The notes beneath the pieces are model-generated. The model was not told where the DNA came from. It saw only the letters and a program-made list of their open reading frames with translations, and made no database searches. Source: Escherichia phage vB_Eco_mar004NP2. Taken from it: a stretch of 64,000 nucleotides of DNA. The DNA is taken from the sequence record OR896837.1; one strand, 5' to 3'. The first letter of the stretch is position 1. Each line of letters starts with the position of its first letter. Positions 12,707 through 63,290 of the stretch are shown here, in pieces. Position numbers and translations under genes: made by a program.

Positions 12707-13486
12707 ATGAAAATCGAAATTCCAACACAATGTCCCTCTTGTGGTTCTAAGCTAGATCTTGTCAACGGACAATTATTCTGTCGGAATAAGTCCAACTGTC
12801 CAGCGCAATCAAGTAAGTTAATTGAGAACTTCTGTTCAAAAATGAAGTTAAAGGGCTTTGGCCCAAAAACTATTGAGAAGCTGGAGCTGACGAAGATTTC
12901 AGAACTATTTTACCTAACCGAAGAAGATTTGGTTAGAGCCGTGGGTAGCAAGGTTGCCGCTAAGTTAATTAGCGAATTAAATACTAAAGTTCGCGGAGAC
13001 ATTGACTTTGGTTCAGTTCTCGGTTCTTTAGGAATCCCTCTAATTGGAGAGGTTGCAGCAAAGAAATTATCCCAAAATTACACTAGCTTCCATGATGTGA
13101 AGGCTGACGGCAAGGCTGGAGAAAATTACAAAGCCTGGCTAAATTCCCCACAAGGCAAGGATGTTATCGAACTACCGTGGAAATTTTCAACTGGTATTAA
13201 GGGCACTAAAGCTGACGTCATCATTACAGATGAATTAGTTGCCCAGCCAAATGGAATCGCGGTATGTATTACCGGATCTTTGCAAGATTTTGCAAATCGA
13301 ACGGATGCAACAAACTATTTAGAAGGTCTAGGGTATACGGTTAAGAAATCCGTTACTAAAGACGTCAAATACCTAATCTGTGAGGATGAATCAAAACGTT
13401 CTTCCTCATCTTATAAGAAAGCCGAAACGAATGGGATAGAAATCCTGTCGATTAAAGAACTATTGGAGAAAAATAATAATGTCTAA
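12707..13486 (+). CDS. NAD-dependent DNA ligase, C-terminal subunit (Zn finger, HhH, BRCT; split ligase, part B)
   Basis: ORF track 12704 (TTG); ATG 12707 preferred; CPSCGSKL...CRNKSNC zinc finger then helix-hairpin-helix-like and BRCT-like C-terminus. Confidence 0.8.
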   Translation: MKIEIPTQCPSCGSKLDLVNGQLFCRNKSNCPAQSSKLIENFCSKMKLKGFGPKTIEKLELTKISELFYLTEEDLVRAVGSKVAAKLISELNTKVRGDIDFGSVLGSLGIPLIGEVAAKKLSQNYTSFHDVKADGKAGENYKAWLNSPQGKDVIELPWKFSTGIKGTKADVIITDELVAQPNGIAVCITGSLQDFANRTDATNYLEGLGYTVKKSVTKDVKYLICEDESKRSSSSYKKAETNGIEILSIKELLEKNNNV

Positions 13487-14246
13487 ACTGAACTGGAACG
13501 TAGAAGGTGTAACCGAGTCTCTGAAAGCAAAAGCCACTGCTCTGGGTGTTGCTGTAATCTCTCAAGAACAAGTAGCTGCTATCGCTGCTGAACTGGCTGC
13601 TGAAACTGGCAAAGACGTTACCGCTCGCTCTGTTGGCTCTAAGCTGCGTAAAGAAGGTTTTGAAGTACAAAAAGCTAACGAAGTACAGAAATCCCCGTGG
13701 ACTCCTGAGCAGGAAGCTGAACTGGTTGATTTCCTGAACGCTCATGCTGGTCAGTATACCTATGCTGAAATCGCTGCTGCTGTAGCTGGTGGTCAATTTG
13801 GTGCTAAGCAGGTACAGGGTAAGATCCTGAGTCTGGAAATGACCGCCTCTGTTAAACCAACTGAAAAAGCTGCTGCTGTTCGTTCCTTCACTCCTGATGA
13901 AGAAACCGATTTTGTTAATCAGGTTGTTGCTGGGGCTACTATTGAAGCTATCGCTGCTCACTTCGGTCGTAATATCAAGCAGATCCGTGGTAAAGCTCTG
14001 AGCCTGCTTCGTGAAGGTCGTATCGCTGCTATGCCGGTACAGGAAACTTCAAGTGCTAAAACTCGTGAAGATCTGTTAGAAGGTCTGGATCTGGCTAACA
14101 TGACTGTTGCTGAGATCGCTGAGAAAACTGGTAAATCTGAGCGCGGTGTTAAATCTATGCTGTCTCGTCGTGGTCTAGTTGCTAAGGACTATGATGGTGC
14201 TGCTAAGCGTGCTAAACTGGATGCAAAAGCTGCGGCTGCTGAATAA
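13479..14246 (+). CDS. Highly expressed protein with three internal ~50-aa repeats (function unknown, possibly DNA-binding)
   Basis: ORF track; strongly biased codon use (GCT/CTG/GGT/CGT); repeats built on TPEQEAELVDFL / TPDEETDFVNQV / TREDLLEGLDL; followed by a strong terminator. Confidence 0.6.
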   Translation: MSKLNWNVEGVTESLKAKATALGVAVISQEQVAAIAAELAAETGKDVTARSVGSKLRKEGFEVQKANEVQKSPWTPEQEAELVDFLNAHAGQYTYAEIAAAVAGGQFGAKQVQGKILSLEMTASVKPTEKAAAVRSFTPDEETDFVNQVVAGATIEAIAAHFGRNIKQIRGKALSLLREGRIAAMPVQETSSAKTREDLLEGLDLANMTVAEIAEKTGKSERGVKSMLSRRGLVAKDYDGAAKRAKLDAKAAAAE

Positions 14247-25653: not shown

Positions 25654-26136
25654 ATGGCTGTAGATAGTAGAGAGAAAGGTAAACGTGGTGAATATCAGGT
25701 AAGAGATATTCTACGCGAGCGTACAGGTCTTGAGTGGGAACGTGTTCCTGGCTCTGGTGCTTTTGGCCAGAGCCACGGACTGAAAGGTGACATCTACCTT
25801 CCACCACAAAGCGGACACATTAGTAAATACTGCTTCGAAGTTAAGTGGTATAAAGATGATAATATATCAAGTAATTTATTTAATGTCGGTGAATCCACTC
25901 TAGAGAAGTGGTGGCAGCAATGCTCACGTGAAGGTGAGCAGATGAACTCCAAGTCTGCATTAATATTCAAAAAAGACAGAGGACAGTGGTTAATAGCTTT
26001 GGATAGCGCAGACCCGATGGTTGACAACTTAATGAGTCGTACCCATATGGTGTTAAATAAGAAAGACATGGAAATCGTAATTGGTTTATTTGAACCGTGG
26101 CTACATCATGCATCTGTTGAGGACTTAATTAAATAA
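25654..26136 (+). CDS. Putative PD-(D/E)xK-type nuclease
   Basis: GDIYLP ... CFEVKWYKD arrangement resembles a D...ExK active site; weak. Confidence 0.45.
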   Translation: MAVDSREKGKRGEYQVRDILRERTGLEWERVPGSGAFGQSHGLKGDIYLPPQSGHISKYCFEVKWYKDDNISSNLFNVGESTLEKWWQQCSREGEQMNSKSALIFKKDRGQWLIALDSADPMVDNLMSRTHMVLNKKDMEIVIGLFEPWLHHASVEDLIK

Positions 26137-27011
26137 TGAGTAAATCCTGGGGAAAATTTATTGAAGAAGAGGAAGCTGAAATGGCTTCCCGTCGTAACCT
26201 AATGATTGTTGATGGAACTAACTTAGGCTTCCGCTTCAAACATAACAATAGTAAAAAACCATTTGCCTCAAGTTATGTTTCCACTATTCAGTCTCTAGCA
26301 AAATCTTATTCTGCTAGAACTACAATAGTTTTAGGGGATAAAGGAAAGTCTGCATTCCGCCTAGAGCATCTTCCAGAGTATAAAGGGAATCGAGATGAGA
26401 AATACTCTCAGCGTACGGAAGAGGAAAAAGCGTTAGATGAGCAGTTTTTCGAGTATTTGAAAGATGCTTTCGAACTATGTGAAACTACATTCCCAACCTT
26501 CACTATTCGTGGTGTAGAAGCAGATGATATGGCAGCTTATATTGTTAAGCTGATTGGGCATCTATATGATCATGTTTGGCTAATTTCTACCGATGGTGAC
26601 TGGGATACTTTATTAACTGATAAAGTTTCTCGCTTCTCTTTTACAACACGTCGTGAATATCATCTTCGTGATATGTATGAGCACCATAATGTTGACGATG
26701 TAGAGCAGTTTATCTCTCTGAAAGCAATTATGGGTGATTTAGGGGATAATATCCGTGGTGTTGAAGGTATTGGGGCAAAACGCGGGTATAATATTATTCG
26801 TGAATTTGGTAACGTTCTGGATATTATTGATCAGCTTCCACTACCTGGAAAACAGAAATATATACAGAATTTAAATGCTTCGGAAGAATTGCTTTATCGA
26901 AACCTAATTTTAGTTGATTTACCTACCTACTGTGTGGACGCTATTGCTGCTGTAGGTCAAGATGTATTAGATAAGTTTACAAAAGATATTTTGGAGATTG
27001 CAGAACAATGA
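26136..27011 (+). CDS. D15: 5'-3' exonuclease / flap endonuclease (T5 D15 type)
   Basis: 291 aa; N-terminus and length match my recollection of T5 D15 exonuclease; FEN acidic clusters (DGTNL, EADD, DGDWD, GDLGDN). Confidence 0.95.
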   Translation: MSKSWGKFIEEEEAEMASRRNLMIVDGTNLGFRFKHNNSKKPFASSYVSTIQSLAKSYSARTTIVLGDKGKSAFRLEHLPEYKGNRDEKYSQRTEEEKALDEQFFEYLKDAFELCETTFPTFTIRGVEADDMAAYIVKLIGHLYDHVWLISTDGDWDTLLTDKVSRFSFTTRREYHLRDMYEHHNVDDVEQFISLKAIMGDLGDNIRGVEGIGAKRGYNIIREFGNVLDIIDQLPLPGKQKYIQNLNASEELLYRNLILVDLPTYCVDAIAAVGQDVLDKFTKDILEIAEQ

Positions 27012-27454
27012 TTAAAATTAAATTAACTCATCCAGATTGTATGCCTAAGATTGGTTCCGAAGATGCCGCAGGTATGGATCTGCGAGCATTCTTTGGTACA
27101 AACCCTGCTGCAGATTTACGTGCTATTGCGCCAGGCAAATCCCTAATGATTGACACCGGTGTCGCGGTAGAAATTCCGCGAGGTTGGTTCGGTTTGGTGG
27201 TTCCTCGTAGCTCTTTAGGTAAGCGCTATTTGATGATTGCAAACACCGCAGGGGTGATCGACTCAGACTATCGTGGTACTATTAAGATGAACCTCTATAA
27301 TTACGGTTCTGAAATGCAAACTCTGGAGAATTTCGAGAGACTTTGTCAGCTAGTGGTATTGCCACATTACTCAACTCATAATTTTGAAATCGTTGATGAG
27401 TTAGAAGAGACTGTACGTGGAGAAGGAGGATTTGGAAGTTCAGGAAGTAAGTAA
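27008..27454 (+). CDS. dut: dUTP diphosphatase (dUTPase)
   Basis: 148 aa; dUTPase motifs AAGMDLRA, PRSSLG, GVIDSDYRG. Confidence 0.9.
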   Translation: MIKIKLTHPDCMPKIGSEDAAGMDLRAFFGTNPAADLRAIAPGKSLMIDTGVAVEIPRGWFGLVVPRSSLGKRYLMIANTAGVIDSDYRGTIKMNLYNYGSEMQTLENFERLCQLVVLPHYSTHNFEIVDELEETVRGEGGFGSSGSK

Positions 27455-27478
27455 TCTACATATAAAATAAATAATAAA

Positions 27479-27513
27479 CCCCAGTGGATTTTGTCCACTG
27501 GGATTTTCTTTTA
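27479..27513. terminator. Bidirectional rho-independent terminator at the early/late boundary
   Basis: 9-bp stem cccagtgga / tccactggg with ttttg loop, T-runs on both strands, between convergent dut and tail-fibre genes. Confidence 0.65.
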
Positions 27514-28158
27514 TTGTGATACTAATTGTACCTTTAATTGCTCAAGCTCTTTCTCTAGATCTTCAATCCGTTTAATAAGATCTTGCACAACATGCATAGT
27601 GTCAAGAAGCATTGGAGTTGTATCTAATTCCTTTTGCTCCTGCTCTATTCCGTCATCATTATAAAATTTTCTAGTTTTTACATAAAGTGGTTCTATAGTC
27701 TCTACTTGCTGAGCAATAACCCCACGTCGGACACGAGATTTTTCATCGTTATTATATACAAAGGATTGGAATTCTAATCCTTTTAATACCTCGATGGACT
27801 TAGTTGCGTCTATAGCCTTAATATCATGCTTTAAGCGAGAATCAGATACAGCATTTAATTGCAAAGTATAGGTTGCTGAAGCACCTGGCCACCAAGAATA
27901 AAAATAAATACTATTATTATTCGGCTGAATTTTTAAACGCACACCAAATTTATTATCATCATCTCCCGCTACCTGCCAACAAGAATCTGCAAATGAGCCT
28001 AAGTCATTATGAATTAATCCAAAATGTGCAGATGTCTTATACCCTGCGGAAGAAGACTGGGAACCGCTCAATATACTATTAAAGTTAAATGTACTACCTA
28101 TATTGACCTCGTTCTGAGAAAGAGTACCTTGTACCCAGCCAGTCTGAGACCACGCCAT
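27511..28158 (-). CDS. Tail-fibre C-terminal segment with intramolecular-chaperone (S74-type) domain; likely 3' part of a frameshift-split fibre gene
   Basis: SDSRLKHDIKAI autocleavage-type motif then coiled-coil C-terminus; 17 open in-frame codons upstream of the ATG. Confidence 0.6.
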   Translation of the reverse strand: MAWSQTGWVQGTLSQNEVNIGSTFNFNSILSGSQSSSAGYKTSAHFGLIHNDLGSFADSCWQVAGDDDNKFGVRLKIQPNNNSIYFYSWWPGASATYTLQLNAVSDSRLKHDIKAIDATKSIEVLKGLEFQSFVYNNDEKSRVRRGVIAQQVETIEPLYVKTRKFYNDDGIEQEQKELDTTPMLLDTMHVVQDLIKRIEDLEKELEQLKVQLVSQ

Positions 28159-28177
28159 GCCAGTAACTAATCTAGCT

Positions 28178-28927
28178 TTAAAACGATCCGTTACAAAATC
28201 CCCATTTATCTACAAGCTGGGCGGAATTCGATTTACCGGTAGATTTATTGTCTATTAGTAGTTCAGTAGAGTAGGTGCCACCAATAGTAGCTTTAGCTCG
28301 TAGTGTACTTACAGCCTCACTACTAGTACCTACTTTATACTCAGATAGTACACTCCCGCCATAAACAGTAGTACCAGTATTAGGTTTGACAGCATCACCA
28401 CTAATAACACTCCACGAAGTCTTTGCAGCCACGAACCCACCAGAAGCACGGATTACCCAGACACCTATAAAGCTGTTTGGAATAATAGTACCTTTTATTC
28501 CATAACGCCCATAAACAGGGTCCGCTAAGTTTGCATCAAAACTAAATCCGTATTGGTTATCAGGATTAACTACGGCGAATGATTTAGATGCACCTCCAGG
28601 AGCGGCACCTAAGCCGTTTTCACCACCAATCGCCCCAATAAGACCAAATCTAGATGAATATCTATTAAGCGCTTCTTCATATGCACCAGCAATAGCGCCA
28701 GGAAAACTACCAGTAATATTGGGTGCTGCAGCTTCTGATATTGAACCAGCTTGACCAGCATCCCCCCCCCCCCCACCGTCACCACGAGCGAATAACCCTT
28801 TGATTGAATTTAGTTGCACACCATTACGATCTGGGACGCGGAAAGTAGTGGTACCATCTCCCGTAGAATATTTCCCACGTTGTCCTACATCTGCTAACCA
28901 AACTGAATCATCTATAGCTCCAACCAT
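28178..28927 (-). CDS. Tail-fibre middle segment with phage tail-collar-type domain and poly-Gly tract
   Basis: Frame is open a further 53 codons upstream of its first ATG with no start codon; the collar motif SDGQLLNRADWPELW lies upstream of the Met, TTFRVPDRNG downstream. Confidence 0.55.
   Translation of the reverse strand: MVGAIDDSVWLADVGQRGKYSTGDGTTTFRVPDRNGVQLNSIKGLFARGDGGGGGDAGQAGSISEAAAPNITGSFPGAIAGAYEEALNRYSSRFGLIGAIGGENGLGAAPGGASKSFAVVNPDNQYGFSFDANLADPVYGRYGIKGTIIPNSFIGVWVIRASGGFVAAKTSWSVISGDAVKPNTGTTVYGGSVLSEYKVGTSSEAVSTLRAKATIGGTYSTELLIDNKSTGKSNSAQLVDKWGFCNGSF
28762..28774. repeat. 13-nt C/G homopolymer inside the tail-fibre coding sequence
   Basis: Plus-strand C13 (G13 on coding strand) encoding GDGGGGGD in frame. 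Confidence 0.9.
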
Positions 28928-28986
28928 TTGTGCATACGCCCAAAGTTCAGGCCAGTCAGCCCTGTTAAGAAGCTGCCCATCAGAAA

Positions 28987-29283
28987 CTACCTCATAAGGT
29001 TGAATATACGCACGGCTATCTCGAAGATGAAAATCCCCACCCCGTAGTTCATAACACCATTCATTGTGGGTCCTACTGTGCCAGTATTAAGTTTGTTCTC
29101 CACCCAACGCTTAGTTGCGGCATCATAGTCACTAACAGGATCTCCAGCAAGAGGGGTAGATCCAATAGGACGCACATTTAGCCATGCTGCACGGTCTGCT
29201 AAGTCACTCAGGTTATTATTTTTATTAAGTGACTCATTTTTAAGTTTTGTAATATCCGTAGGAATTACTGTTTTAGTTACCAT
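28987..29283 (-). CDS. Tail-fibre N-terminal segment (frameshifted relative to the downstream collar-domain frame)
   Basis: Fibre-like N-terminus (DYDAATKRWVENKL); last ~15 residues look like out-of-frame read-through. Confidence 0.5.
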   Translation of the reverse strand: MVTKTVIPTDITKLKNESLNKNNNLSDLADRAAWLNVRPIGSTPLAGDPVSDYDAATKRWVENKLNTGTVGPTMNGVMNYGVGIFIFEIAVRIFNLMR

Positions 29284-29292
29284 TATAAAACC

Positions 29293-29571
29293 TTATGCCC
29301 ATACTCTAAGAGGCTGTTCTAGCTGAACTATAAAAGGCTCGAAGGATTCGTAAGTAAAGGATTCATCAAGAATCCTTACATTAATATAATACCCTTCATT
29401 ACGGATGCATCTAGGTTCCTCATCACCTAGCGGAGAGATTTCAGTATAAGTATATCCAATTTCGTCAAGCATTATTTGGTTTTGCAAATTTTCATTAGTA
29501 TCCCACTCTATTTTTAAGAGAAAATCTTTATATGCTGATTTATCCGTGAATTTTAGGATTATATCTCTCAT
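29293..29571 (-). CDS. Hypothetical protein between the two tail-fibre genes
   Basis: ORF track; ATGA overlap with upstream gene. Confidence 0.5.
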   Translation of the reverse strand: MRDIILKFTDKSAYKDFLLKIEWDTNENLQNQIMLDEIGYTYTEISPLGDEEPRCIRNEGYYINVRILDESFTYESFEPFIVQLEQPLRVWA

Positions 29572-31625
29572 ACATACTCCTTCATTTGTCTATCAGTTAG
29601 TTCCTTATGCCAGATTCTAAAGTTTCTAACGTGCCCGAAAAGATGACGTTCGCCCCTAGTTGTTTGTCCTCCAATCCTTATAGTAGCCGTTGATTGTATG
29701 TATCTCCATTCCGTTTTTGTTTCGCTTGATATTCTGGCATTACTTACACAGCAAGTATTGTAATCACTCTTTACTCTCATTCCCATGATCATCTTTTTTA
29801 GTTTTGCATTCTCGTAAACCCTTCTGTTTGATTTACCTATATCGCAATAAGGGAAACCATCATTATCGCCTTCGGCAGATCCGAAAGCAAGAATAATAGC
29901 CGCTTCGGTTTGATGACCTCTGGTATCAAAAACACGTGGCGCTGCACTTGGCGTTATACTCCAGTTTTTATGAGCTTCCACAAGTACTGTAAACGGCAAA
30001 TTGTAAAGGTTGTTTTTTATTGGTAATGTGACCATATCGCTTGCCCGTGTTACTGGAGTCTCTTCTGTAATAATAAACGATGAAGCGCACGCCCCGCCTT
30101 CAACTTGAGGGGTAGCTACCTGTAAGTACTCTCCACCAGAATAAGTGCCAGGTGAAACAGGTGGAGCAATTTGGATCTGAGAGCTAACCATATTATCAAT
30201 AGCTTCAGATTGATATGTAACCTCGAAATAAATCCATCCATTAGATTCTTTCTCCGCTCGGGCGGTTATTCTTGCAGCCCCTACTTCCGTTTTTCTAATG
30301 GACATATCTGTTATATTAAGATATGCATCTGCTAGATAAAAATATGCGGATCCGTCATATCTTTCAAATCTTATACGACATTGTATATTAGCACTATCGC
30401 TTTTTACACGACATGATGTTGTAACATACTTTTCAGTTCCGGTAACATCGACACCTCTTCCTCCTGAAATCGCAGCGATATTCATTGCCGTATTTGTCCC
30501 AATTTTTTCGTCCTTTATTTGAAACCGCCCATAAGTAAATCCAAACTCATCAACACCACTTTCTGTTATAGTTACACTTGTTGTAGCTTCCCACTTAGAT
30601 GGCGTAAGTGAGTTAAGATGATAGTTAGTTCTTTGCCCCTCAATGAGCAAACCATCCTTTTCAAATCTAGGTTCATTAATCCCCGCAACAGTTAATACAC
30701 CTGATTTATTAATATATGTCGCAGTTGATGCACGTGTAAAGCTAACAATCTTGTCACTGGGCAGTGTTATTTCCTCATCACCGACTGTTATTTTTTTTTT
30801 ATAGTCTGGCGCAAAGCCGGTGATCATATCTAGAGAATCGTTAAACGGTATCCATACATCTGGAAGAGGTTGAATGTCGGGGGTAGAATTAGCAGCAGCT
30901 TCTGATCTATCAGCCTCAGTTTTTGAACGATCGGCTTCAGTTTTAGCAGTATTAGCACTATTAGCAGCATTAGTAGCTTGTTTTCCTGCTTCAGTAGCAG
31001 AATTAGCAGCACTAGTTGCAGAATTAGCAGCTTGGTTTTTTAGCGTGGTAGTTTCTGTTATCGCGCTATTCTTAATGCCTTGTGTGTCTGTTTTTAACTG
31101 CGCAACATCTGCCTTTATAGCTGTTGTCTCTGTTACAGCACTGTTTTTAATGGCCTGAGTATCTGATTTTAGCTGCTCAACATCTGATTTTAAGCCTTGA
31201 ATAGTAGTTACTGACTGACTAGCTGAAGTTGCGGAACTAGCTGCGTTATTCTCACTAGCTTTGGCTTTAGTCTCACTAGCTTTGGCTTTAGTCTCACTAG
31301 CTTTTGCATTAGTCTCGGATACTTTAGCAGCGGATGCAGATGTTGCAGCTTGTCTAGCGAATGTTTCTGCTTCATCCCTAAAACCTTTAGAATTGGCAGC
31401 AGACGCAGCAGCATTAGTCTCACTAATTTTAGCGTTAGTTTCGCTAATTTTTGCAGCCGCAGCAGATTTAGCAGCAGCCTCTATAGAAGATACTAACTCA
31501 TTAGCAGTAATAGAGCTAATAGAATTTCCAAGAGTTACTGTGTATCTAGGAAATTTACTAGCAGTAGCTTTAGTATCATCAATATTTAATATTTGTTGTA
31601 CAATAATCTTAGTAGTTATTGCCAT
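29568..31625 (-). CDS. L-shaped tail fibre protein (T5 pb1-like N-terminus, Ala/Ser/Thr-rich repeat shaft, distinct C-terminal domain)
   Basis: N-terminus resembles T5 pb1 as remembered; repeat shaft SETNAKASETKAKASETKAKASE; 685 aa, far shorter than T5 pb1. Confidence 0.7.
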   Translation of the reverse strand: MAITTKIIVQQILNIDDTKATASKFPRYTVTLGNSISSITANELVSSIEAAAKSAAAAKISETNAKISETNAAASAANSKGFRDEAETFARQAATSASAAKVSETNAKASETKAKASETKAKASENNAASSATSASQSVTTIQGLKSDVEQLKSDTQAIKNSAVTETTAIKADVAQLKTDTQGIKNSAITETTTLKNQAANSATSAANSATEAGKQATNAANSANTAKTEADRSKTEADRSEAAANSTPDIQPLPDVWIPFNDSLDMITGFAPDYKKKITVGDEEITLPSDKIVSFTRASTATYINKSGVLTVAGINEPRFEKDGLLIEGQRTNYHLNSLTPSKWEATTSVTITESGVDEFGFTYGRFQIKDEKIGTNTAMNIAAISGGRGVDVTGTEKYVTTSCRVKSDSANIQCRIRFERYDGSAYFYLADAYLNITDMSIRKTEVGAARITARAEKESNGWIYFEVTYQSEAIDNMVSSQIQIAPPVSPGTYSGGEYLQVATPQVEGGACASSFIITEETPVTRASDMVTLPIKNNLYNLPFTVLVEAHKNWSITPSAAPRVFDTRGHQTEAAIILAFGSAEGDNDGFPYCDIGKSNRRVYENAKLKKMIMGMRVKSDYNTCCVSNARISSETKTEWRYIQSTATIRIGGQTTRGERHLFGHVRNFRIWHKELTDRQMKEYV
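31251..31313. repeat. Three tandem 21-bp repeats inside the tail-fibre gene
   Basis: ctcactagctttggctttagt x2 plus a degenerate third copy; encodes the KASETKA heptad-like repeats. Confidence 0.7.
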
Positions 31626-37683: not shown

Positions 37684-40600
37684 TTAAGAATTTCCTAATG
37701 TTTTCAGACTAGTACCGTTCTCATTCAGAGCTAATTCCACTGCGTCTCTTAGAGCACTACTATTACTAGAAGCAAACTCTCTAAAACTTGCAGCATCCAT
37801 AGCACTAATATTCAGGATGATAGGTCTTCCTGAAGTTGAGTTAGATGAGGTTTTTAGCTCATCATTAGGCGTAGCTTTCATAGGAACCATAGGGGTAACT
37901 ACTTCTGTACCATGCTCACCCATTTGATAGCTAACCCCAGGGTACATATTACCACCTTCGGCACGCGGCACAAATGAATTAGCATTACCAATACCTTGAT
38001 CACCACGTACATAAGATAGTTCTCCAGCATTAGCAGACATAGATACATCAATGTTCTTCTGACGCTCTCCAAGAGTTAAATAACTAGTGGTATCAGCTCC
38101 AGAATCTGCAATACTTGACATACTAGAGGCAGAGGATGCCTGCGCTAATGCCAGAGCACCTGCTAATCCTGCCGCTACCATCAGAGGGATAGAGAACGGG
38201 TATGGTACAGCTGTTGCTGCCTGCATAACTGCTACTGCAGTTTGGATGATAATCCGCTTCTTAGCTGCATCTTGTTGAATCTTCAGCTTTTCAGCTTCTA
38301 GCTTCTTCAATTTAGCTTTAGATGCTTCTGATTTACCATCACGTTTCTGCTCCGCTGCGATAGCTGCATCAATAGCACTAACCTGTTGACTAGTACTATA
38401 CTGAATCATAGAAGATACAGTTTGCATGCCAGAAGCAATCAAGGAGGTAGTATCTAGGGATCCCTGAGAGAACTGAATCATAGCGTTAGTTAAGTTACCC
38501 ATACTTTGAGCCACAGCGGTTGCTTCAGAATTTAATTCAGATAGCTTAGAGATTGCTTGGTCATAAGAAGCCATTCTATTTTGCATATCAGCAAAATCTT
38601 TATCTTCTCCAGATAATCCCGTTGTAGGAGTGTACACAGCACCTACAGAGGATCCTACCTGTTGTTGCATTTGAGCATTACGTTGCGCCGTTAAAGCAGA
38701 CATTTGAGCCCTTGTCTTAGCTATTTCAGCATTCCAGCGCATTTGCTCGTTAGCATTACCTTTGGTAAGTTCCTTCATCTGAGTATAAAAATCTAACTGC
38801 ATTTCCATTTTTTGCATTTCCCCTGCCAGAGGGAACATGGAAGTTAGAGTATTTTCAAAGGCTTCTTGCCTTTTACTGGTCATTTCAGCTTGCTGATCCT
38901 GACGGAATTTCCATATTTCACGTTCAATTTGAGCTTGAGAACGTCTAGACTGTTCAGCCTCTTTCTGTTTATCAGCCTGTTTTGTATACCATTCGTACTT
39001 CTCTTTTTCAATGGTCAATTCAAGATTTAACTGTGCTAGACGATACTGAGTATCTGTCATAGTACGGTTATTTAAGAGAGCTATCTCACGATCTACGCCA
39101 AGAATTTTATCTGTGTAATCCTTGACCTTCTTCTGAGCTTCCATACCCTGATTAGTAAGTTTAAGTTTCTCCAGCTGAATTTTTTCAATTTCTTTCTCAA
39201 CAGCTTTATTTCCCTGGTTTGTTTGAAGAACACGGCGTAAAGCAGCTTCTTGCTCTTCTAACTGTTGGAGTTCTAAACGTCTACCAGCTTCCTGAGCCTT
39301 TTCCTTATCCTTAGTTTGATTATACACATCAGCTATTTTCTGTTGAACTGCTAACTGATTTTTAGTTTCATTACCAGTTAGTTTAACATACTCAGATAGA
39401 GCCTGAGATGCAGTTTTCATTTCAGACAGGGTGTTATAACCCAGGTTAAGGTTTTTAACATATTCATCGGCACTCTTACCGGTACCTAAGGATAGAGATT
39501 CTATATTTTTTATAGCATCTGCCAAAGTAGCACTAGTTTTAGCAGCAGTATCTGTATTCTGAGCAACGTTCTGTATATCATTAGCTAAGTCACTAGCCGT
39601 TTTCTTAGTCTGATTGTACGCTTTCTGCTGCTCAGTTAGTCCTTTTAATACAGTAGAGTTAAAATCGTATACAGCATCAGGATCAGTAGTATCTCTCTGT
39701 AGATTAATTTGCTTCTGAAACTCTGGACTAGCCTTTGCAGCAGCGGCACCAGCAGCTTGATACGCTGATTTCCAAGCATTGAGATTCTCTGTAGAATCCT
39801 CTACTTCCTTACCAAGTCTAGTTACTTGTAGACCCATAGCTGCAGTTTCTGCTACAAATTGCTTATTGGCCTCCGAAGCACCTGCTGCTACAAGACCAAC
39901 AGGAATACCTTCACCAACTTGACGTATAGCTAATTTTGTATAGAAATCTGCTTGTTCCATTCGTTTATCAAACTCAGATTTTAGCTTATTACGCTTATCA
40001 AGAGATTCCTTATACATATCTAGAGCTTTATTATAGCCTTCTTCAGAAGCAGCTAAACTTAAAGCAACAGCACCAACGTTGGTAGGGTCTATCTGTCTAT
40101 TAGTTTTTTCTTGGGCCCTAGCTGCTTCAGCAGATATAGAAGCCTGAGATGTATAAAATACTGTGTTGATAGCATCAATTACTGGCCCTAAATACTTAGC
40201 AGCAGCTTGTTGTATTTTTCTTAGTGCAGCATCTGCATTAGCAGCAAATTGCTCCCACGGAGTTGCACGTAGTACTTCATCTAGGTAGCCAAAACGCTTA
40301 GTAGATTCAGCAATTACCGCGTTAGCGTATGCTTGTTGCTTCTGGAAAGTGGTAAGACTATTAACATTATATGTTATACCTGTGTTTGCAGCATTTAACT
40401 GTTTAGCATAATCAGCGTATGCATCATTAAGACGGATGGTGACACCCAGCTCATCCAGAAGTTCGATTTCTTGTTTAGATACGCCCTTAATTACACGGTT
40501 AAGTGCATCAGTCATATCAATGCCAAGAACAGCAGCCGCACGACGAGCTACTAAACCAAATTTATTAAGTTGTTCGGCATCAAATCCATAAGCAGATGCT

Positions 40601-41367
40601 GAAGATGCCTGTCTCATTGCTTCCTCAAAAGAAATAGCATATCCAGCAGCTTCTTGTAGTGATCTAGCAAGGGTCTGAACAGGAGTACCTGTCTGAGTAC
40701 CTACTATAACACCAAATTTTTCTAGACGATTTAGCTGATCACCTAGTTTAAGTTGTTCAAATGCTGATTGCAAAACGAAGATGTTGGAAGCAAGAGCTGC
40801 GTACATAATAGGTAGACTACCACCGATCTTAGCCATTGCCGCAAAATCACGAGTTGCACCACGTGCTGAACCAGAAGTATTACCAATAGCTCTAGAAGCT
40901 CTACCAGCGGCACCAGCAGTATCATTAAAACCCCTAGCTGTGCCACCTAATGCTCTATTAGTATCATATAATCTATCCTGGACTTTTTCTGTTGCAGCTG
41001 CAACATCATTACCTATTGTTTTAACAGATCTAGAAACTCCATCGAATCCAATTTCTAGTTTATCTGTCACTTCAATAAGCTGGATAGCTAGGTAATCTAG
41101 TTTATCACCAATATCATTAATAGATTTGGTGATACCAGCCATACCCCTACTAGCTTGCATTTTAGTAAGACTTTTTGCTGCTCTGTCTGCTGCCCTCTCA
41201 ATGGAATAAAGAGTTCTGGGCATTTTACCTAACTGCTCATTTGTCAGTTCGGAAGCAGCAGCAGCATTTTCCAACGCATCAGATACGTTTTCAATAGACT
41301 TTGCAGTACGAGTTGCTCCCTTCTGTTTAACGTCTATTAGTAATTCTCGTATTAGCTTATCAGTCAT
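37684..41367 (-). CDS. Tail tape measure protein (T5 pb2-like)
   Basis: 1227 aa, long coiled-coil-rich protein with hydrophobic segment near the C-terminus. Confidence 0.85.
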   Translation of the reverse strand: MTDKLIRELLIDVKQKGATRTAKSIENVSDALENAAAASELTNEQLGKMPRTLYSIERAADRAAKSLTKMQASRGMAGITKSINDIGDKLDYLAIQLIEVTDKLEIGFDGVSRSVKTIGNDVAAATEKVQDRLYDTNRALGGTARGFNDTAGAAGRASRAIGNTSGSARGATRDFAAMAKIGGSLPIMYAALASNIFVLQSAFEQLKLGDQLNRLEKFGVIVGTQTGTPVQTLARSLQEAAGYAISFEEAMRQASSASAYGFDAEQLNKFGLVARRAAAVLGIDMTDALNRVIKGVSKQEIELLDELGVTIRLNDAYADYAKQLNAANTGITYNVNSLTTFQKQQAYANAVIAESTKRFGYLDEVLRATPWEQFAANADAALRKIQQAAAKYLGPVIDAINTVFYTSQASISAEAARAQEKTNRQIDPTNVGAVALSLAASEEGYNKALDMYKESLDKRNKLKSEFDKRMEQADFYTKLAIRQVGEGIPVGLVAAGASEANKQFVAETAAMGLQVTRLGKEVEDSTENLNAWKSAYQAAGAAAAKASPEFQKQINLQRDTTDPDAVYDFNSTVLKGLTEQQKAYNQTKKTASDLANDIQNVAQNTDTAAKTSATLADAIKNIESLSLGTGKSADEYVKNLNLGYNTLSEMKTASQALSEYVKLTGNETKNQLAVQQKIADVYNQTKDKEKAQEAGRRLELQQLEEQEAALRRVLQTNQGNKAVEKEIEKIQLEKLKLTNQGMEAQKKVKDYTDKILGVDREIALLNNRTMTDTQYRLAQLNLELTIEKEKYEWYTKQADKQKEAEQSRRSQAQIEREIWKFRQDQQAEMTSKRQEAFENTLTSMFPLAGEMQKMEMQLDFYTQMKELTKGNANEQMRWNAEIAKTRAQMSALTAQRNAQMQQQVGSSVGAVYTPTTGLSGEDKDFADMQNRMASYDQAISKLSELNSEATAVAQSMGNLTNAMIQFSQGSLDTTSLIASGMQTVSSMIQYSTSQQVSAIDAAIAAEQKRDGKSEASKAKLKKLEAEKLKIQQDAAKKRIIIQTAVAVMQAATAVPYPFSIPLMVAAGLAGALALAQASSASSMSSIADSGADTTSYLTLGERQKNIDVSMSANAGELSYVRGDQGIGNANSFVPRAEGGNMYPGVSYQMGEHGTEVVTPMVPMKATPNDELKTSSNSTSGRPIILNISAMDAASFREFASSNSSALRDAVELALNENGTSLKTLGNS

Positions 41368-41380
41368 GTTTTATTTTTCC

Positions 41381-41415
41381 CAATAAAAAAGGCTCTGGGC
41401 AAATCACCCAGAGCC
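41381..41415 (-). terminator. Rho-independent terminator/attenuator immediately upstream of the tape measure gene
   Basis: Stem ggctctggg / cccagagcc then TTTTTTATT on the minus strand; shares the sequence TTTTTTATTGGGAAAAATAAA with the element at 46361-46388. Confidence 0.55.
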
Positions 41416-41450
41416 AAGCCTCATCGTGGAACGCCCATTGGAGGAAACTT

Positions 41451-41819
41451 TTACCGTGCACGAGATCTAGCATGTGGCTTAACGTTAGGAATCCTTCCGT
41501 TTTGCGGTTTATGCTTCTCAGCACGTTTACGTGCAGCATCTACAGCTTTAGCATCAAATATATTGATAATGTGTAGAACAAATTCTTTCTCTATAGGATC
41601 AGTAATCCCATAAATATCAAATAAAACACCTAGAGCAGCCTTATCTTTACCTATAAAGATAGGAAAGTCACCTGGTATGAAGCAGTCAATTAGACTGTTA
41701 TAAATATTCATACTAGTAGCCACAATAGGTGGAAAGTCTTCAAGTTCAACAGGCATGGCCTTAGGATCAGGCTCTATACCCATTGATTCACAAAGTATTA
41801 AATATTGTTGTTTAGTCAT
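41451..41819 (-). CDS. Hypothetical protein (possible tail assembly chaperone)
   Basis: Position between tail tube and tape measure genes; no motif evidence. Confidence 0.45.
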   Translation of the reverse strand: MTKQQYLILCESMGIEPDPKAMPVELEDFPPIVATSMNIYNSLIDCFIPGDFPIFIGKDKAALGVLFDIYGITDPIEKEFVLHIINIFDAKAVDAARKRAEKHKPQNGRIPNVKPHARSRAR

Positions 41820-41880
41820 TTTAGATGCTGAGCTTTTAATACACTTATCTGCAAAATCAGCAACAGCATCTAGGAGTTCT

Positions 41881-42300
41881 TTACGCTTTTGGGCTACGAA
41901 AAGTGTCTAAGTGGAACACTGTCTGGTTGATCCAAGAATCAAACGCAGCAGAGTTCTGCATGAGCATTACAGCATTATCGCGGCTAAAAGGAACTTCAGT
42001 AGCAGGATCAGCATCTGTTTCAATCAGCATCAGTTTTTCAACGTCACCTACAGTCAAACCGGTCCAACCTTTAATAGCTGCGTCAACGAAGGCTTCAATG
42101 AACTTATCATCATCCTGTACCTGAATCAAAGTACCATTAACCCATTCATCGCGTTTAGCAGAAGAAATAACACGTTTAGAGGTAGCACGAGACATATAGT
42201 TAAGTTCTAATTTAAAGTTCGGCATACCTGGGTAGGAAAGAGTAATAGTACGAGTATCAAGAGTAATATCTTTTAAATTAATCATTTTTAATTTCTCCAA
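41881..42300 (-). CDS. Hypothetical protein (possible tail assembly chaperone)
   Basis: Position only. Confidence 0.45.
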   Translation of the reverse strand: MEKLKMINLKDITLDTRTITLSYPGMPNFKLELNYMSRATSKRVISSAKRDEWVNGTLIQVQDDDKFIEAFVDAAIKGWTGLTVGDVEKLMLIETDADPATEVPFSRDNAVMLMQNSAAFDSWINQTVFHLDTFRSPKA

Positions 42301-43180
42301 AGAAATCTATTCTCACTGGGTCTGAAGAAGCAGTAGGTATAATATCCCACTCAACTCTATACACATCTGAGAAATCTAGGCGTTTTGTAATACGTGCTGA
42401 AGGAAAATCTATAGAAATATTATTATTTCTTATATTTAAAGGTACATCTGTCTCCGGTTCGATATTGTAAACCATATCTCCTGCAAAACGTTTTAAGTAA
42501 TATAGAGAAATGGTTGCCGAAGCATTCATTTCAGTTACATAGGCTCTTTTATTATTATAAATTTTATTTATATCAAAAACACTCTTATCCTCTCTCCAAG
42601 AGCACTGCTGCTGGAAAGATAAAGAGGCAGAAATAAGACCGGGTAAGATGCTGCCATTAGTAGAAGCTATTACTGGGCTGTAAGACATTACTTCACCCTG
42701 TATAATAGAAGCTGCTTCTCTATAGGTAGATACTTCTGAGAATTTCCCAGACTCAATACCAACATTAAGAATTGGTATGTTCTTATCTAAAGAAAAATCT
42801 ACCGTAGATACATAACAGTTTTCAAAATATACACAGTTATTATCTTTATTTACTATATAGATATTGAACATAATAGGTTCAATATTACTACTATATAGTG
42901 GGAGTAAGAAAGTATTACCTTTTCTATCAAAACCTAACCATTCAAAGAAGTTAGCTTCAGTAAGAGTATTACTGAAATTTACTGCTAGAGAGATAGAAGA
43001 GGGGGTTTGAGCATTTATAATAGAGTCTGCATAGTTAGTTCTATGATGAACAGTCCTACGAAGAGTCTTGAATTCCTCGTAGGAAGTCTGTATATCATAG
43101 TTTGATAGGGCATCAAAATGAAATGCCCTACCATCATACTCAACTATAACTTTTGACTCTCTCATTAGAGAGTAGTACAT
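42278..43180 (-). CDS. Tail protein (possibly collar p140-like)
   Basis: 300 aa directly downstream of the tail tube gene; assignment by position. Confidence 0.45.
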   Translation of the reverse strand: MYYSLMRESKVIVEYDGRAFHFDALSNYDIQTSYEEFKTLRRTVHHRTNYADSIINAQTPSSISLAVNFSNTLTEANFFEWLGFDRKGNTFLLPLYSSNIEPIMFNIYIVNKDNNCVYFENCYVSTVDFSLDKNIPILNVGIESGKFSEVSTYREAASIIQGEVMSYSPVIASTNGSILPGLISASLSFQQQCSWREDKSVFDINKIYNNKRAYVTEMNASATISLYYLKRFAGDMVYNIEPETDVPLNIRNNNISIDFPSARITKRLDFSDVYRVEWDIIPTASSDPVRIDFFGEIKND

Positions 43181-43184
43181 TTAA

Positions 43185-44555
43185 TTAGCCACCAGAACCG
43201 TCTTTAGCTACAGCTTTCACAGTAACTTCTCCAGTCTTAGTAGTATCCGCAGTTAATAGACCAGATTCTGGATCAATTGTAGCTGCATCACCGCTAGAAA
43301 TAGACCAAGTTACAGCACTATTAGTAGCATCTGACGGAGTTACTTCAACAGACATCTGTAGAGTATTGCTATTCTCCACTGAAGTGACATTACCAGCTGA
43401 TTTAACTGTGATTGATTCAACTAGTTTTGGTGGAGTTTTAGCGCCATCTCCTGTAGCAATCAGATTAGCCACAGTGGTTTTAGTATACTTGTTAGAAAAA
43501 CCAAGATAACCTTCATCACCAGTATCCAGATCTGTAGGGATAGCTTTAAACTCTACTGAAGTACCAAGTACATCAACAGTCTCAATATTAGGAATATTAA
43601 CATGCGCCTGTTTAGCAACTAACACAGCTGCCGGACGTTCATCATCATATTCACCACCAAGGATAAGTGCAACTTCAAACTTGTTAACTACCTTAAGAGT
43701 TTTAATTAGATCTTTATATAGCTCCATAGATCCTAGAGCTTTATCATTAAGGTAAGCTGTCAGAGAACCAGTTAGTTCAAACGCACCAGTAAATGAACCG
43801 ATCGGAATATTTACACGGGACATAATATTGGGGGTTAGGTACGTAATATTGTTATTAATGGTGAAAGTACCTCCAGTAATAGGGATATCATATGCCTTAT
43901 CAGAATCCATATCCTTAATTTTCAGGATAGTCAATTTGTTCTTGATATAAGAACTCTGAATAGTCATATAAGTTTCATCATCAACACCTACAGTATCAGG
44001 ATCAAATGGTTGCTCATCCAAAGGAATAAGCTGGTTACCATTACCTGACCAAGTTACACGACCAATATCCTCAATATCAACGTTAACTTCTGCCTGGTTG
44101 ATCTGGCAAGAGTCGATGTAACTCCATGCTTTGTCAGTCAGGATGTAGATATGCAGCATTGCCAGTTCGTGGTACGCGTTATCTTTAAAGTTAACCATAA
44201 AATTGGTTTCGTTATTATGTGCTCCTGTATCACCTTTTAGGTTAAGAGCTTTACCGCTAGAAATAGCATGCCATAACATATAGTCAGGGACAATCTGTTT
44301 GTTAGTAGTTTTATCTATATATGGCAGGATATAAGTAGAGAAACTCCACTCAGCCGCGTTTAAAGAGTCATTAAAACGTTTAGAACCACGAGTTGGACGC
44401 GGACCAGCTTCATTAACAGTAATATCTGTTAAGTTACTGTCCTGACCCCAAGAAATATCATCCTGAACTAGAATCTCTTGCGTGTTGGTCTTATTATGAC
44501 CAGTCTTAACCGTAGACACGAAGATTCGAGTATTACGTAATAGTTGTAAAGACAT
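43185..44555 (-). CDS. Major tail tube protein (T5 pb6-like) with C-terminal Ig-like domain
   Basis: 456 aa; C-terminal Ig-like block (NSAVTWSISSGDAATIDPESGLLTA). Confidence 0.8.
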   Translation of the reverse strand: MSLQLLRNTRIFVSTVKTGHNKTNTQEILVQDDISWGQDSNLTDITVNEAGPRPTRGSKRFNDSLNAAEWSFSTYILPYIDKTTNKQIVPDYMLWHAISSGKALNLKGDTGAHNNETNFMVNFKDNAYHELAMLHIYILTDKAWSYIDSCQINQAEVNVDIEDIGRVTWSGNGNQLIPLDEQPFDPDTVGVDDETYMTIQSSYIKNKLTILKIKDMDSDKAYDIPITGGTFTINNNITYLTPNIMSRVNIPIGSFTGAFELTGSLTAYLNDKALGSMELYKDLIKTLKVVNKFEVALILGGEYDDERPAAVLVAKQAHVNIPNIETVDVLGTSVEFKAIPTDLDTGDEGYLGFSNKYTKTTVANLIATGDGAKTPPKLVESITVKSAGNVTSVENSNTLQMSVEVTPSDATNSAVTWSISSGDAATIDPESGLLTADTTKTGEVTVKAVAKDGSGG

Positions 44556-62298: not shown

Positions 62299-63060
62299 AT
62301 GAGGCTATATAAACCAGGTAACGCAACCGTCTTAAAAGGTGCGCTGCGTAACCTGCTGGACGGTAGCAGAACAACCAGCATTAAACATTTTATTAACAAG
62401 GCTGAAACTATTCACCAAAACTTTTTTGGTGATTTCGATGCCTATGATATGAATAGTTTTCTACCGTTATATAAACAAGGGGCAACGCTTGTTTTATATA
62501 ATCAAGATTATCAATTGCTCACTAGTCGAGGGCCGGATACTGATTTCATAATCGTAAAAGGTAGCACAGTAAAAGCCTATGATACTGGGGCAGGCTTAGA
62601 AGTTTTTTCAATAGAAAATTATGAAGCCAACCCCAATGATCTTTATGATATTGAAAATTTTCTTGATTCATTTTGGCGTTATTTATCAGTTGGCTGGAAT
62701 CGGTCGGATTGTGACGGGTATCGTTTCGCGGCTGTAATGGCCTTTGATGATAACGGTAATTTTTTGTTACCGTCGGAAGTGTACCCTTATGTATATGAGG
62801 GGGATATTGAAAGCGCGGGCTTTTCTTTCTGGAAGGAGGAAGATCAGCCTATTGACAACACGGAAAAACATGCTGTAAATTCTAACACTCAAAGCGTTAA
62901 CACTCAAACTACTGAAAACAAAGGAAATAATACCATGACCAAGATCGCTAATATCGTTGCCGCTAATAAATCCGCTGTTGTAAATGCTGCAAAACTGGAA
63001 GCTGGCAAAATTGCATTGACTCAAATCACGAAAGTAGCGGCTAAAAACCGCCGTTTATGA
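62299..63060 (+). CDS. Hypothetical protein (253 aa)
   Basis: ORF track; SD gggagg upstream. Confidence 0.55.
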   Translation: MRLYKPGNATVLKGALRNLLDGSRTTSIKHFINKAETIHQNFFGDFDAYDMNSFLPLYKQGATLVLYNQDYQLLTSRGPDTDFIIVKGSTVKAYDTGAGLEVFSIENYEANPNDLYDIENFLDSFWRYLSVGWNRSDCDGYRFAAVMAFDDNGNFLLPSEVYPYVYEGDIESAGFSFWKEEDQPIDNTEKHAVNSNTQSVNTQTTENKGNNTMTKIANIVAANKSAVVNAAKLEAGKIALTQITKVAAKNRRL

Positions 63061-63290
63061 TTAAAGGTTATATTGATACGCCGATTGGTCGGGTAGTTAT
63101 TGCTAACCTGCTGAGCGTAGCGGTTGACCAGTACGCCCCGAATAACCAGAAAGCGAAAGCGGTAGCAGGCGCAGCTATGGAAGCGGCAATGCTAGAAATG
63201 GTGCAAAGTTTTAACATCGCTGAAATGATTGATGAAATGGTGAAAGGTATCGATATTTCTACTTTTACCACTAGCACCGAAAGCGAGTAA
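63057..63290 (+). CDS. Hypothetical protein (77 aa)
   Basis: ORF track; ATGA overlap with upstream gene. Confidence 0.45.
   Translation: MIKGYIDTPIGRVVIANLLSVAVDQYAPNNQKAKAVAGAAMEAAMLEMVQSFNIAEMIDEMVKGIDISTFTTSTESE

Follow-up and report, generated by a model that had tools for sequence, protein, structure and literature searches.

LtfB is the second subunit of the branched, L-shaped tail fibres of DT57C and DT571/2, two T5-like phages, and an orthologous gene of Escherichia phage vB_Eco_mar004NP2 has been named ltfB (PMC6563131; PMC4728585). Only on O-antigen-producing strains are lateral fibres essential; on rough strains the phage can do without them (PMC10713586). Phages with LtfB knocked out grow unimpaired on laboratory strains, no lateral fibres are visible in an opal mutant of ltfB, and mutations of the ltf locus have arisen in passage on strain C600 (PMC4728585). 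DT530(1), for instance, acquired an ltfA-ltfB fusion deletion after C600 passage, a case of spontaneous damage to the locus, tolerated or selected on a rough K-12 host (PMC4728585). Variation of a different kind is known from T2 and T4, in which homopolymer contingency loci have been described (PMC12633550), and from Campylobacter phages, for which poly-G tracts are cited in PMC10877375.

The locus considered here lies in a 64-kb window, the whole stretch of DNA that was analysed, from a Tequintavirus (T5-like) phage. It is the ltfB-type lateral (L-shaped) tail-fibre gene of a mar004NP2-species Tequintavirus, occupies 27511-29283 on the minus strand and falls into three pieces. As in DT57C and DT571/2, it follows a collar/LtfC gene and an ltfA-like gene and precedes the dUTPase gene (PMC4728585; PMC10713586), and it resembles the DT57C-type LtfB in its C-terminal S74 chaperone domain and in a function that is dispensable on rough hosts. 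In contrast to the DT57C gene, it is broken by two frameshifts, its central receptor-binding part is only partly similar, and its upstream partner is not a DT57C-type LtfA (PMC6563131) but a member of PHROG 1419. The breakage differs in kind from that of DT530(1), a recombinational deletion between repeats, in that it consists of two point frameshifts. The gene was probably inactivated genuinely and very recently, by two real single-base frameshifts in the present isolate.

Identity and genomic setting of the locus

Over 27400-29700 the window is 99.3-99.4% identical at the nucleotide level to Salmonella phage SPLA5b, Escherichia phage vB_Eco_mar004NP2, phage KS_S14 (LC788706) and Salmonella phage PMBT29. 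A single intact CDS of 589-590 aa, annotated as 'tail fiber protein', spans the equivalent of 27511-29283 in mar004NP2 (gp051/orf135, YP_009824675), SPLA5b (WNT48387) and PMBT29 (XCD29680); at the positions of the two frameshifts these orthologues carry five G and AA, respectively, and they have 7 or 10 G in a tract that numbers 13 G in the window. The assignment to ltfB rests on this alignment, on the published naming (PMC6563131) and on the match of the intact protein to PHROG 6921, 'tail fiber protein' (E 7e-181). Residues 526-1072 of DT57C LtfA (the deposited sequence of PDB 8hqz_d) also align to the intact protein (E 6e-135), and the alignment is near-identical straight through the junction at which the initial annotation had joined two open reading frames. 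The near-identical block common to the C-terminal half of DT57C LtfA and the window gene extends from NLSDLADRAAAWLNVRPIG to NYGVGDFHLRDSRAYIQPYEVVSDGQLLNRADWPELWAYAQM. This comparison concerns sequence rather than structure, as the map of 8hqz_d resolves only the N-terminal part of the chain (PMC10713586).

Near the C-terminus, 27688-27846 (minus strand) encodes a Peptidase_S74/endosialidase-chaperone domain (PF13884; 48.5 bits, cut-off 22). The tail-collar label given to the central part in the initial annotation fares less well: a collar-like motif, KYSTGDGTTTFRVPDRNG, is present, but the Pfam Collar model (PF07484) scores 17.7 and 19.8 bits against a gathering threshold of 24, and the match covers only model positions 38-54, that is, the motif itself.

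The window, mar004NP2 and SPLA5b have a common gene order: collar/LtfC gene, ltfA-like gene (796-aa tail protein), a 92-aa ORF, ltfB and the dUTPase gene, the last on the strand opposite to the ltfB module. The ltfA-like partner belongs to PHROG 1419, and an exact look-up of its 685-aa product gave no record. A tblastn search found at least 80% of the intact protein covered at one place in 166 phage records, and nearly all of the matches listed (60 of 166) consisted of a single piece. Because the window gene is not one uninterrupted ORF but carries two frameshifts, it is filed as an LtfB-family pseudogene.

The two frameshifts and the resulting fragments

The first frameshift lies at 29035-29038 (minus strand), where the window has four G and all four closest relatives have five. 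The coding strand reads CGGGGTGGGGAT at plus-strand positions 29033-29044, of which 29035-29038 is the second G run. At the equivalent site GGGGTGGGGG is found in each of the four relatives, so the missing nucleotide is a G of this run. The initial annotation had proposed that a 1-nt frameshift within GGGGTGGGG interrupts a T5-like tail-fibre gene, and the extra G of the relatives bears this out. Upstream of the site, fragment 1 (28987-29283, minus strand; 98 aa) begins at the authentic start, whose ATG is preceded by a weak Shine-Dalgarno sequence (TAAGG). It encodes about 83 genuine N-terminal residues, followed after ...NYGVG by 15 out-of-frame residues, IFIFEIAVRIFNLMR, and a stop; these residues are the end that had been described as nonsense. 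The motif NYGVGDFH lies in one continuous ORF in all 15 relatives examined, mostly without a G run. The run itself is not conserved: YGVGDF is kept in more distant relatives, but with the codons GGT GTT GGT. An exact-pattern scan of IMG/VR found the five-G allele once and the four-G allele not at all.

Fragment 2 (28178-29086, minus strand) holds the central part of the fibre, including the collar-like motif, and its genuine coding extends from about 29034 to 28208. Its frame opens at 29086, after a TAA stop at 29087-29089, and the codons before the first ATG read ...GDFHLRDSRAYIQPYEVVSDGQLLNRADWPELWAYAQ. The first start codon is at 28927, which gives the 249-aa minus-strand ORF 28178-28927; a check of the codons agreed with the earlier statement that 53 of them upstream of this ATG are open and include no ATG, GTG or TTG. 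Adding one G within 29035-29038 does fuse the ORFs of fragments 1 and 2, as proposed, but the gene remains broken, since a second frameshift follows.

This second frameshift lies at 28205-28207 (minus strand), 830 nt downstream of the first and opposite in sign: the window has AAA in place of the AA of the relatives, one nucleotide extra. It creates the tail KWGFCNGSF and a stop at 28178-28180. The original frame re-opens at 28209 as fragment 3 (27511-28209, minus strand), which encodes the distal fibre and the C-terminal intramolecular chaperone, including the S74 domain. One frame is thus open over 29292-28990 and again from 28209 to 27514, and the other over 29086-28181. The annotated ORF 27511-28158 (the C-terminal 215 aa) begins at a Met that is internal in the intact protein. 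The second frameshift, the third fragment and the 13-G tract had all been overlooked in the initial annotation.

The three ORF products are in NCBI as WWD13553, WWD13552 and WWD13551, each named 'tail fiber protein [Escherichia phage vB_Eco_mar004NP2]' and encoded on a contig of 98,746 bp. That the fragments are separate genes with their own starts was rejected: no Shine-Dalgarno sequence precedes the ATG at 28927 or that at 28158, and both correspond to internal Met residues of intact homologues. Homologous phages, moreover, encode the N-terminal and the central part as one gene, the opposite of the finding that had been named as counting against a single interrupted gene. The three deposited CDS (WWD13551-53) are fragments of one inactivated ltfB.

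Besides the frameshifts, the gene has lost one GCA in frame at 29185-29190 (minus strand; two units against three in the relatives, one Ala fewer), and its 13-G tract is longer than in the relatives. In a five-way alignment, what sets the window apart in ltfB is four slippage-type indels, all of them at small repeats, and not one substitution of its own. Restoring one G and removing one A yields an ORF of 590 aa without a single substitution against mar004NP2 LtfB, from which it differs by one Ala fewer and two Gly more and by nothing else. The comparison of the repaired protein with T5-like tail fibres, suggested earlier as a check, thus returned intact homologues.

Origin of the frameshifts

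If both changes are real, a run of five G has lost one G at 29035-29038 and one A has been added at 28205-28207. Ribosomes that initiate at the authentic start would then reach a stop after about 98 residues, neither the middle nor the C-terminal piece would have a ribosome-binding site of its own, and the C-terminal chaperone, needed for folding of the trimer, would be cut off from the fibre. Given the early stop, the lack of ribosome-binding sites for the other pieces and the disconnected chaperone, a functional LtfB fibre is not to be expected. As judged from the alignment, the mutations must be very recent, because the repaired protein is free of substitutions relative to mar004NP2 LtfB. 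The loss would be tolerated, and possibly favoured, because lateral fibres, which bind O-antigen, are dispensable on rough laboratory hosts.

Sequencing or consensus error is the strongest competing explanation. It holds that ltfB is in reality intact and that both indels are artefacts that base calling, error correction or polishing introduced at short homopolymers. It would be odd for neutral decay to leave two independent frameshifts within 1.8 kb and not a single substitution, a pattern that resembles indel-type sequencing error; every window-specific difference in ltfB is a repeat indel (five G to four, AA to AAA, three GCA to two, and 7 or 10 G to 13), the repaired protein is free of substitutions, and another gene of the window, encoding a DUF7566 protein, has a 1-nt deletion. 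Nevertheless, the independent Logan assembly, built from k-mers of the raw reads of SRA run SRR27112525, contains a contig (contig_10) that is 100% identical to 25987-31274 of the window (5288 nt) and continues, with neither bubble nor break, through the two frameshifts and the 13-G tract. As this assembly is based on the reads, the frameshift alleles are present in them, at least as a strong majority, and on the evidence of the contig the mutations are fixed or nearly so in the sequenced stock. The frameshift of the DUF7566 gene at 63049 is reproduced by the Logan assembly as well.

The consensus is, moreover, clean elsewhere. About 49 kb aligned to two relatives contained four single-nucleotide indels, one intergenic (21559), two in ltfB and one in the DUF7566 gene (63049). 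More than 260 homopolymers of at least 5 nt occur in the window, yet none of the 49 A/T 6-mers and no other G/C run of 5-6 nt in the aligned part is affected. The frameshift in the DUF7566 gene could be a sign of a slightly elevated frameshift load, whatever its cause.

Changes from AA to AAA and from five G to four are not those to which Illumina, the likely platform, is prone. The platform of SRR27112525 is itself deduced, a literature search for the run number having found nothing: accessions WWD13551-53 lie near those of phage Baret (WWD13087-88, locus tag CPL00220), and from this proximity we infer that the isolate belongs to a Citizen Phage Library batch and that the data are from Illumina. 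In that library, E. coli phages were isolated on rough K-12 BW25113, sequenced by Illumina NovaSeq (2x150) and assembled with Shovill (PMC10893117), and by the same proximity the present phage was probably isolated on K-12 BW25113. CPL00229, a Tequintavirus of the library, did not propagate on a clinical E. coli strain, which would fit a fibre defect if it is the same genome. On balance, error is an unlikely source of the two frameshifts, and this option of the initial annotation is weakened. The odd spectrum of changes may possibly stem from selection for loss with a hitch-hiking second hit, from decay before isolation, or from error.

The initial annotation had also raised phase variation, in which reversible slippage between four and five G at 29035-29038 would switch ltfB off and on as bet-hedging. 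The change is indeed one unit in a homopolymer, and elsewhere in ltfB lies a hypervariable G tract whose length breaks the frame in other isolates. However, a run of 4-5 G is short and commonplace, with 140 G/C runs of this size in the window (121 of length 4 and 19 of length 5). Every relative having the run has five G, distant relatives use GGT GTT GGT instead, and the Logan contig passes 29035-29038 without bubble or break. Reversion at this site alone would, in addition, leave ltfB broken by the second frameshift. The site thus shows neither the long tract nor the length polymorphism among close relatives that characterize a contingency locus, and phase variation there is very improbable.

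The third option, programmed recoding, would require a -1 slip on G GGG, by the ribosome or by RNA polymerase, so that a full fibre is made from two frames. A -1 slip of Gly-tRNA on GTG GGG A would in fact restore the wild-type peptide ...YGVGDF.... The lambda G/GT tail assembly chaperone is made by a conserved programmed -1 frameshift at a slippery heptamer. Both cases concern tail genes with two overlapping frames, but the layout in the window is unique to one isolate and offers no such heptamer. A programmed -1 frameshift was rejected as extremely unlikely: the 15 relatives examined all read YGVGDF in one ORF, mostly without the G run, and conserve no two-frame layout; the zero-frame codons TAC GGG GTG GGG ATT contain no X XXY YYZ heptamer; the 85 nt that follow show no more stable folding than shuffled sequence (z +0.68); and a full fibre would need yet another shift, of opposite sign, at GATAAATGG, 830 nt farther along the gene. 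Genuine inactivation, one of the possibilities named at the outset, is the one that these comparisons favour, and the locus is in all probability an ordinary, recently inactivated gene rather than a recoding signal.

Homopolymer tracts and significance

The ltfB gene contains a 13-G homopolymer at 28762-28774 (minus strand), the sole G/C run longer than 6 nt in the window, which is in frame and encodes a run of Gly (GGT GGG GGG GGG GGG GAT). The tract numbers 10 G in SPLA5b, 7 in mar004NP2 and PMBT29, and 6 in KS_S14; 7 G are also found in an IMG/VR contig, in phC17 and in a human-gut contig (ENA). The ltfB gene of KS_S14 (LC788706) is, like that of the window, split, being annotated as two CDS, but its break is at the out-of-frame 6-G tract and not at either of the window's frameshift sites. 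For P0013 an out-of-frame tract of 8 G is deduced from the protein only (N-terminus MTVGGD); P0013 and P0015 are truncated members of the protein cluster. JLBYU40 and Lindwurm have the interrupted form GGGGGAG, and other ltfB alleles are without the tract. A gapped pattern scan returned 7-G alleles in a single IMG/VR contig and a single gut contig of ENA; a further match, L021, was discarded as an unrelated chance match of high GC content. The second-longest homopolymer of the window is in the neighbouring ltfA-like gene: at 30791-30800 the plus strand has ten T (A10 on the coding strand), where the run of the relatives is 3 nt shorter. The two longest homopolymers of the window are therefore both in lateral tail-fibre genes.

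Among near-identical phages the 13-G tract of ltfB varies in length, and its alleles are partly in frame and partly out of frame. This is the sequence pattern of a hypermutable repeat, here within a gene for host recognition, and it suggests a contingency locus. In this the tract resembles the T2/T4 loci and those of the Campylobacter phages, which have a long homopolymer in a host-recognition gene; the G run at 29035-29038 does not. The likeness is drawn entirely from sequences of different isolates, and the out-of-frame alleles in other records could be sequencing errors. That the 13-G tract of ltfB and the A10 tract of the ltfA-like gene are genuine contingency loci is conceivable, though rather doubtful. 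Slippage at these tracts would toggle fibre expression or vary the length of a Gly or Lys linker, and toggling would hedge a phage population between O-antigen-bearing and O-antigen-free hosts. No contingency locus of a Tequintavirus was described in the literature searched. If true, this interpretation would extend phage contingency loci from T2/T4 and Campylobacter phages to the receptor-binding genes of T5-like phages.

The kind of gene (ltfB) and its mode of breakage are already known, and three CDS in the public record correspond to its fragments. On strains that carry O-antigen, the host range of a phage lacking LtfB should be narrower, which matters for therapy and for host-range work. 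The case also illustrates that lateral fibres are under no selection when T5-like phages are isolated on rough K-12. If the poly-G tract does switch within populations, it would provide a tractable coliphage model of phase-variable host recognition.

Homopolymer tracts in the lateral-fibre genes

The 64-kb window contains only one G/C homopolymer longer than 6 nt, a G13 tract (28762-28774, minus strand) located inside the lateral tail-fibre gene ltfB. Among sequenced near-identical phages, the length of this tract was found to be 6, 7, 10 or 13 G, and an additional 8-G allele was deduced from one protein N-terminus; the 6-G and 8-G alleles are out of frame. The ltfB poly-G tract is a candidate contingency locus.

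The second-longest homopolymer of the window is a T10 run on the plus strand (30791-30800). It belongs to the ltfA-like gene (29568-31625), whose coding strand reads A10 at this site. Therefore, the top two homopolymers both lie within lateral-fibre genes. All four close relatives (mar004NP2, SPLA5b, PMBT29, and KS_S14) carry A7 at this position, and the 3 extra nucleotides of the window add one lysine to the protein (DYKKKITVG versus GYKKITVG in the relatives). Both G13 and A10 represent in-frame expansions.

The ltfA-like protein and the adjacent small ORF

The ltfA-like tail protein, encoded on the minus strand, is 685 aa long in the window, compared with 796 aa in mar004NP2 and SPLA5b. The difference of ~111 aa, at window about 31274-31480, is in frame and stems from a region of 21-nt (7-aa) repeats. 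An independent short-read contig (Logan) ends at 31274, and the alignment to the relatives breaks slightly beyond this point, at about 31427-31478. The shorter repeat region may mean that repeats were genuinely lost, or else that the assembly collapsed them. In its C-terminal half, the protein differs from that of mar004NP2 by about a dozen substitutions, several of which replace Gly with Glu or Asp. Between the ltfA-like gene and ltfB lies a 92-aa ORF belonging to PHROG 1361 (29293-29571, minus strand), which is conserved in the same interval in all relatives examined and could encode a fibre assembly or adaptor protein.

Differences from relatives outside the fibre genes

The DUF7566/PHROG 4263 gene (62299-63290, plus strand), which is undivided in mar004NP2 (gp089; 330 aa), is split in the window into ORFs of 253 and 77 aa by a 1-nt deletion at about 63049, in a context that is not a homopolymer; the same split is present in Logan contig_16 (run SRR27112525). 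In a homing-endonuclease gene, a 1-nt deletion (window about 51099) is carried by the reference mar004NP2 rather than by the window. The gene is accordingly represented there by two CDSs, gp072 and gp071 (13322-13995 in the reference, L005), while the window matches SPLA5b, in which a single endonuclease CDS is annotated.

A 4.3-kb segment (38927-43199) covering the tape-measure and tail-assembly-chaperone region shows only about 94% identity to mar004NP2 and SPLA5b, as opposed to 98.8-99.7% in its flanks, and is probably a recombination mosaic.
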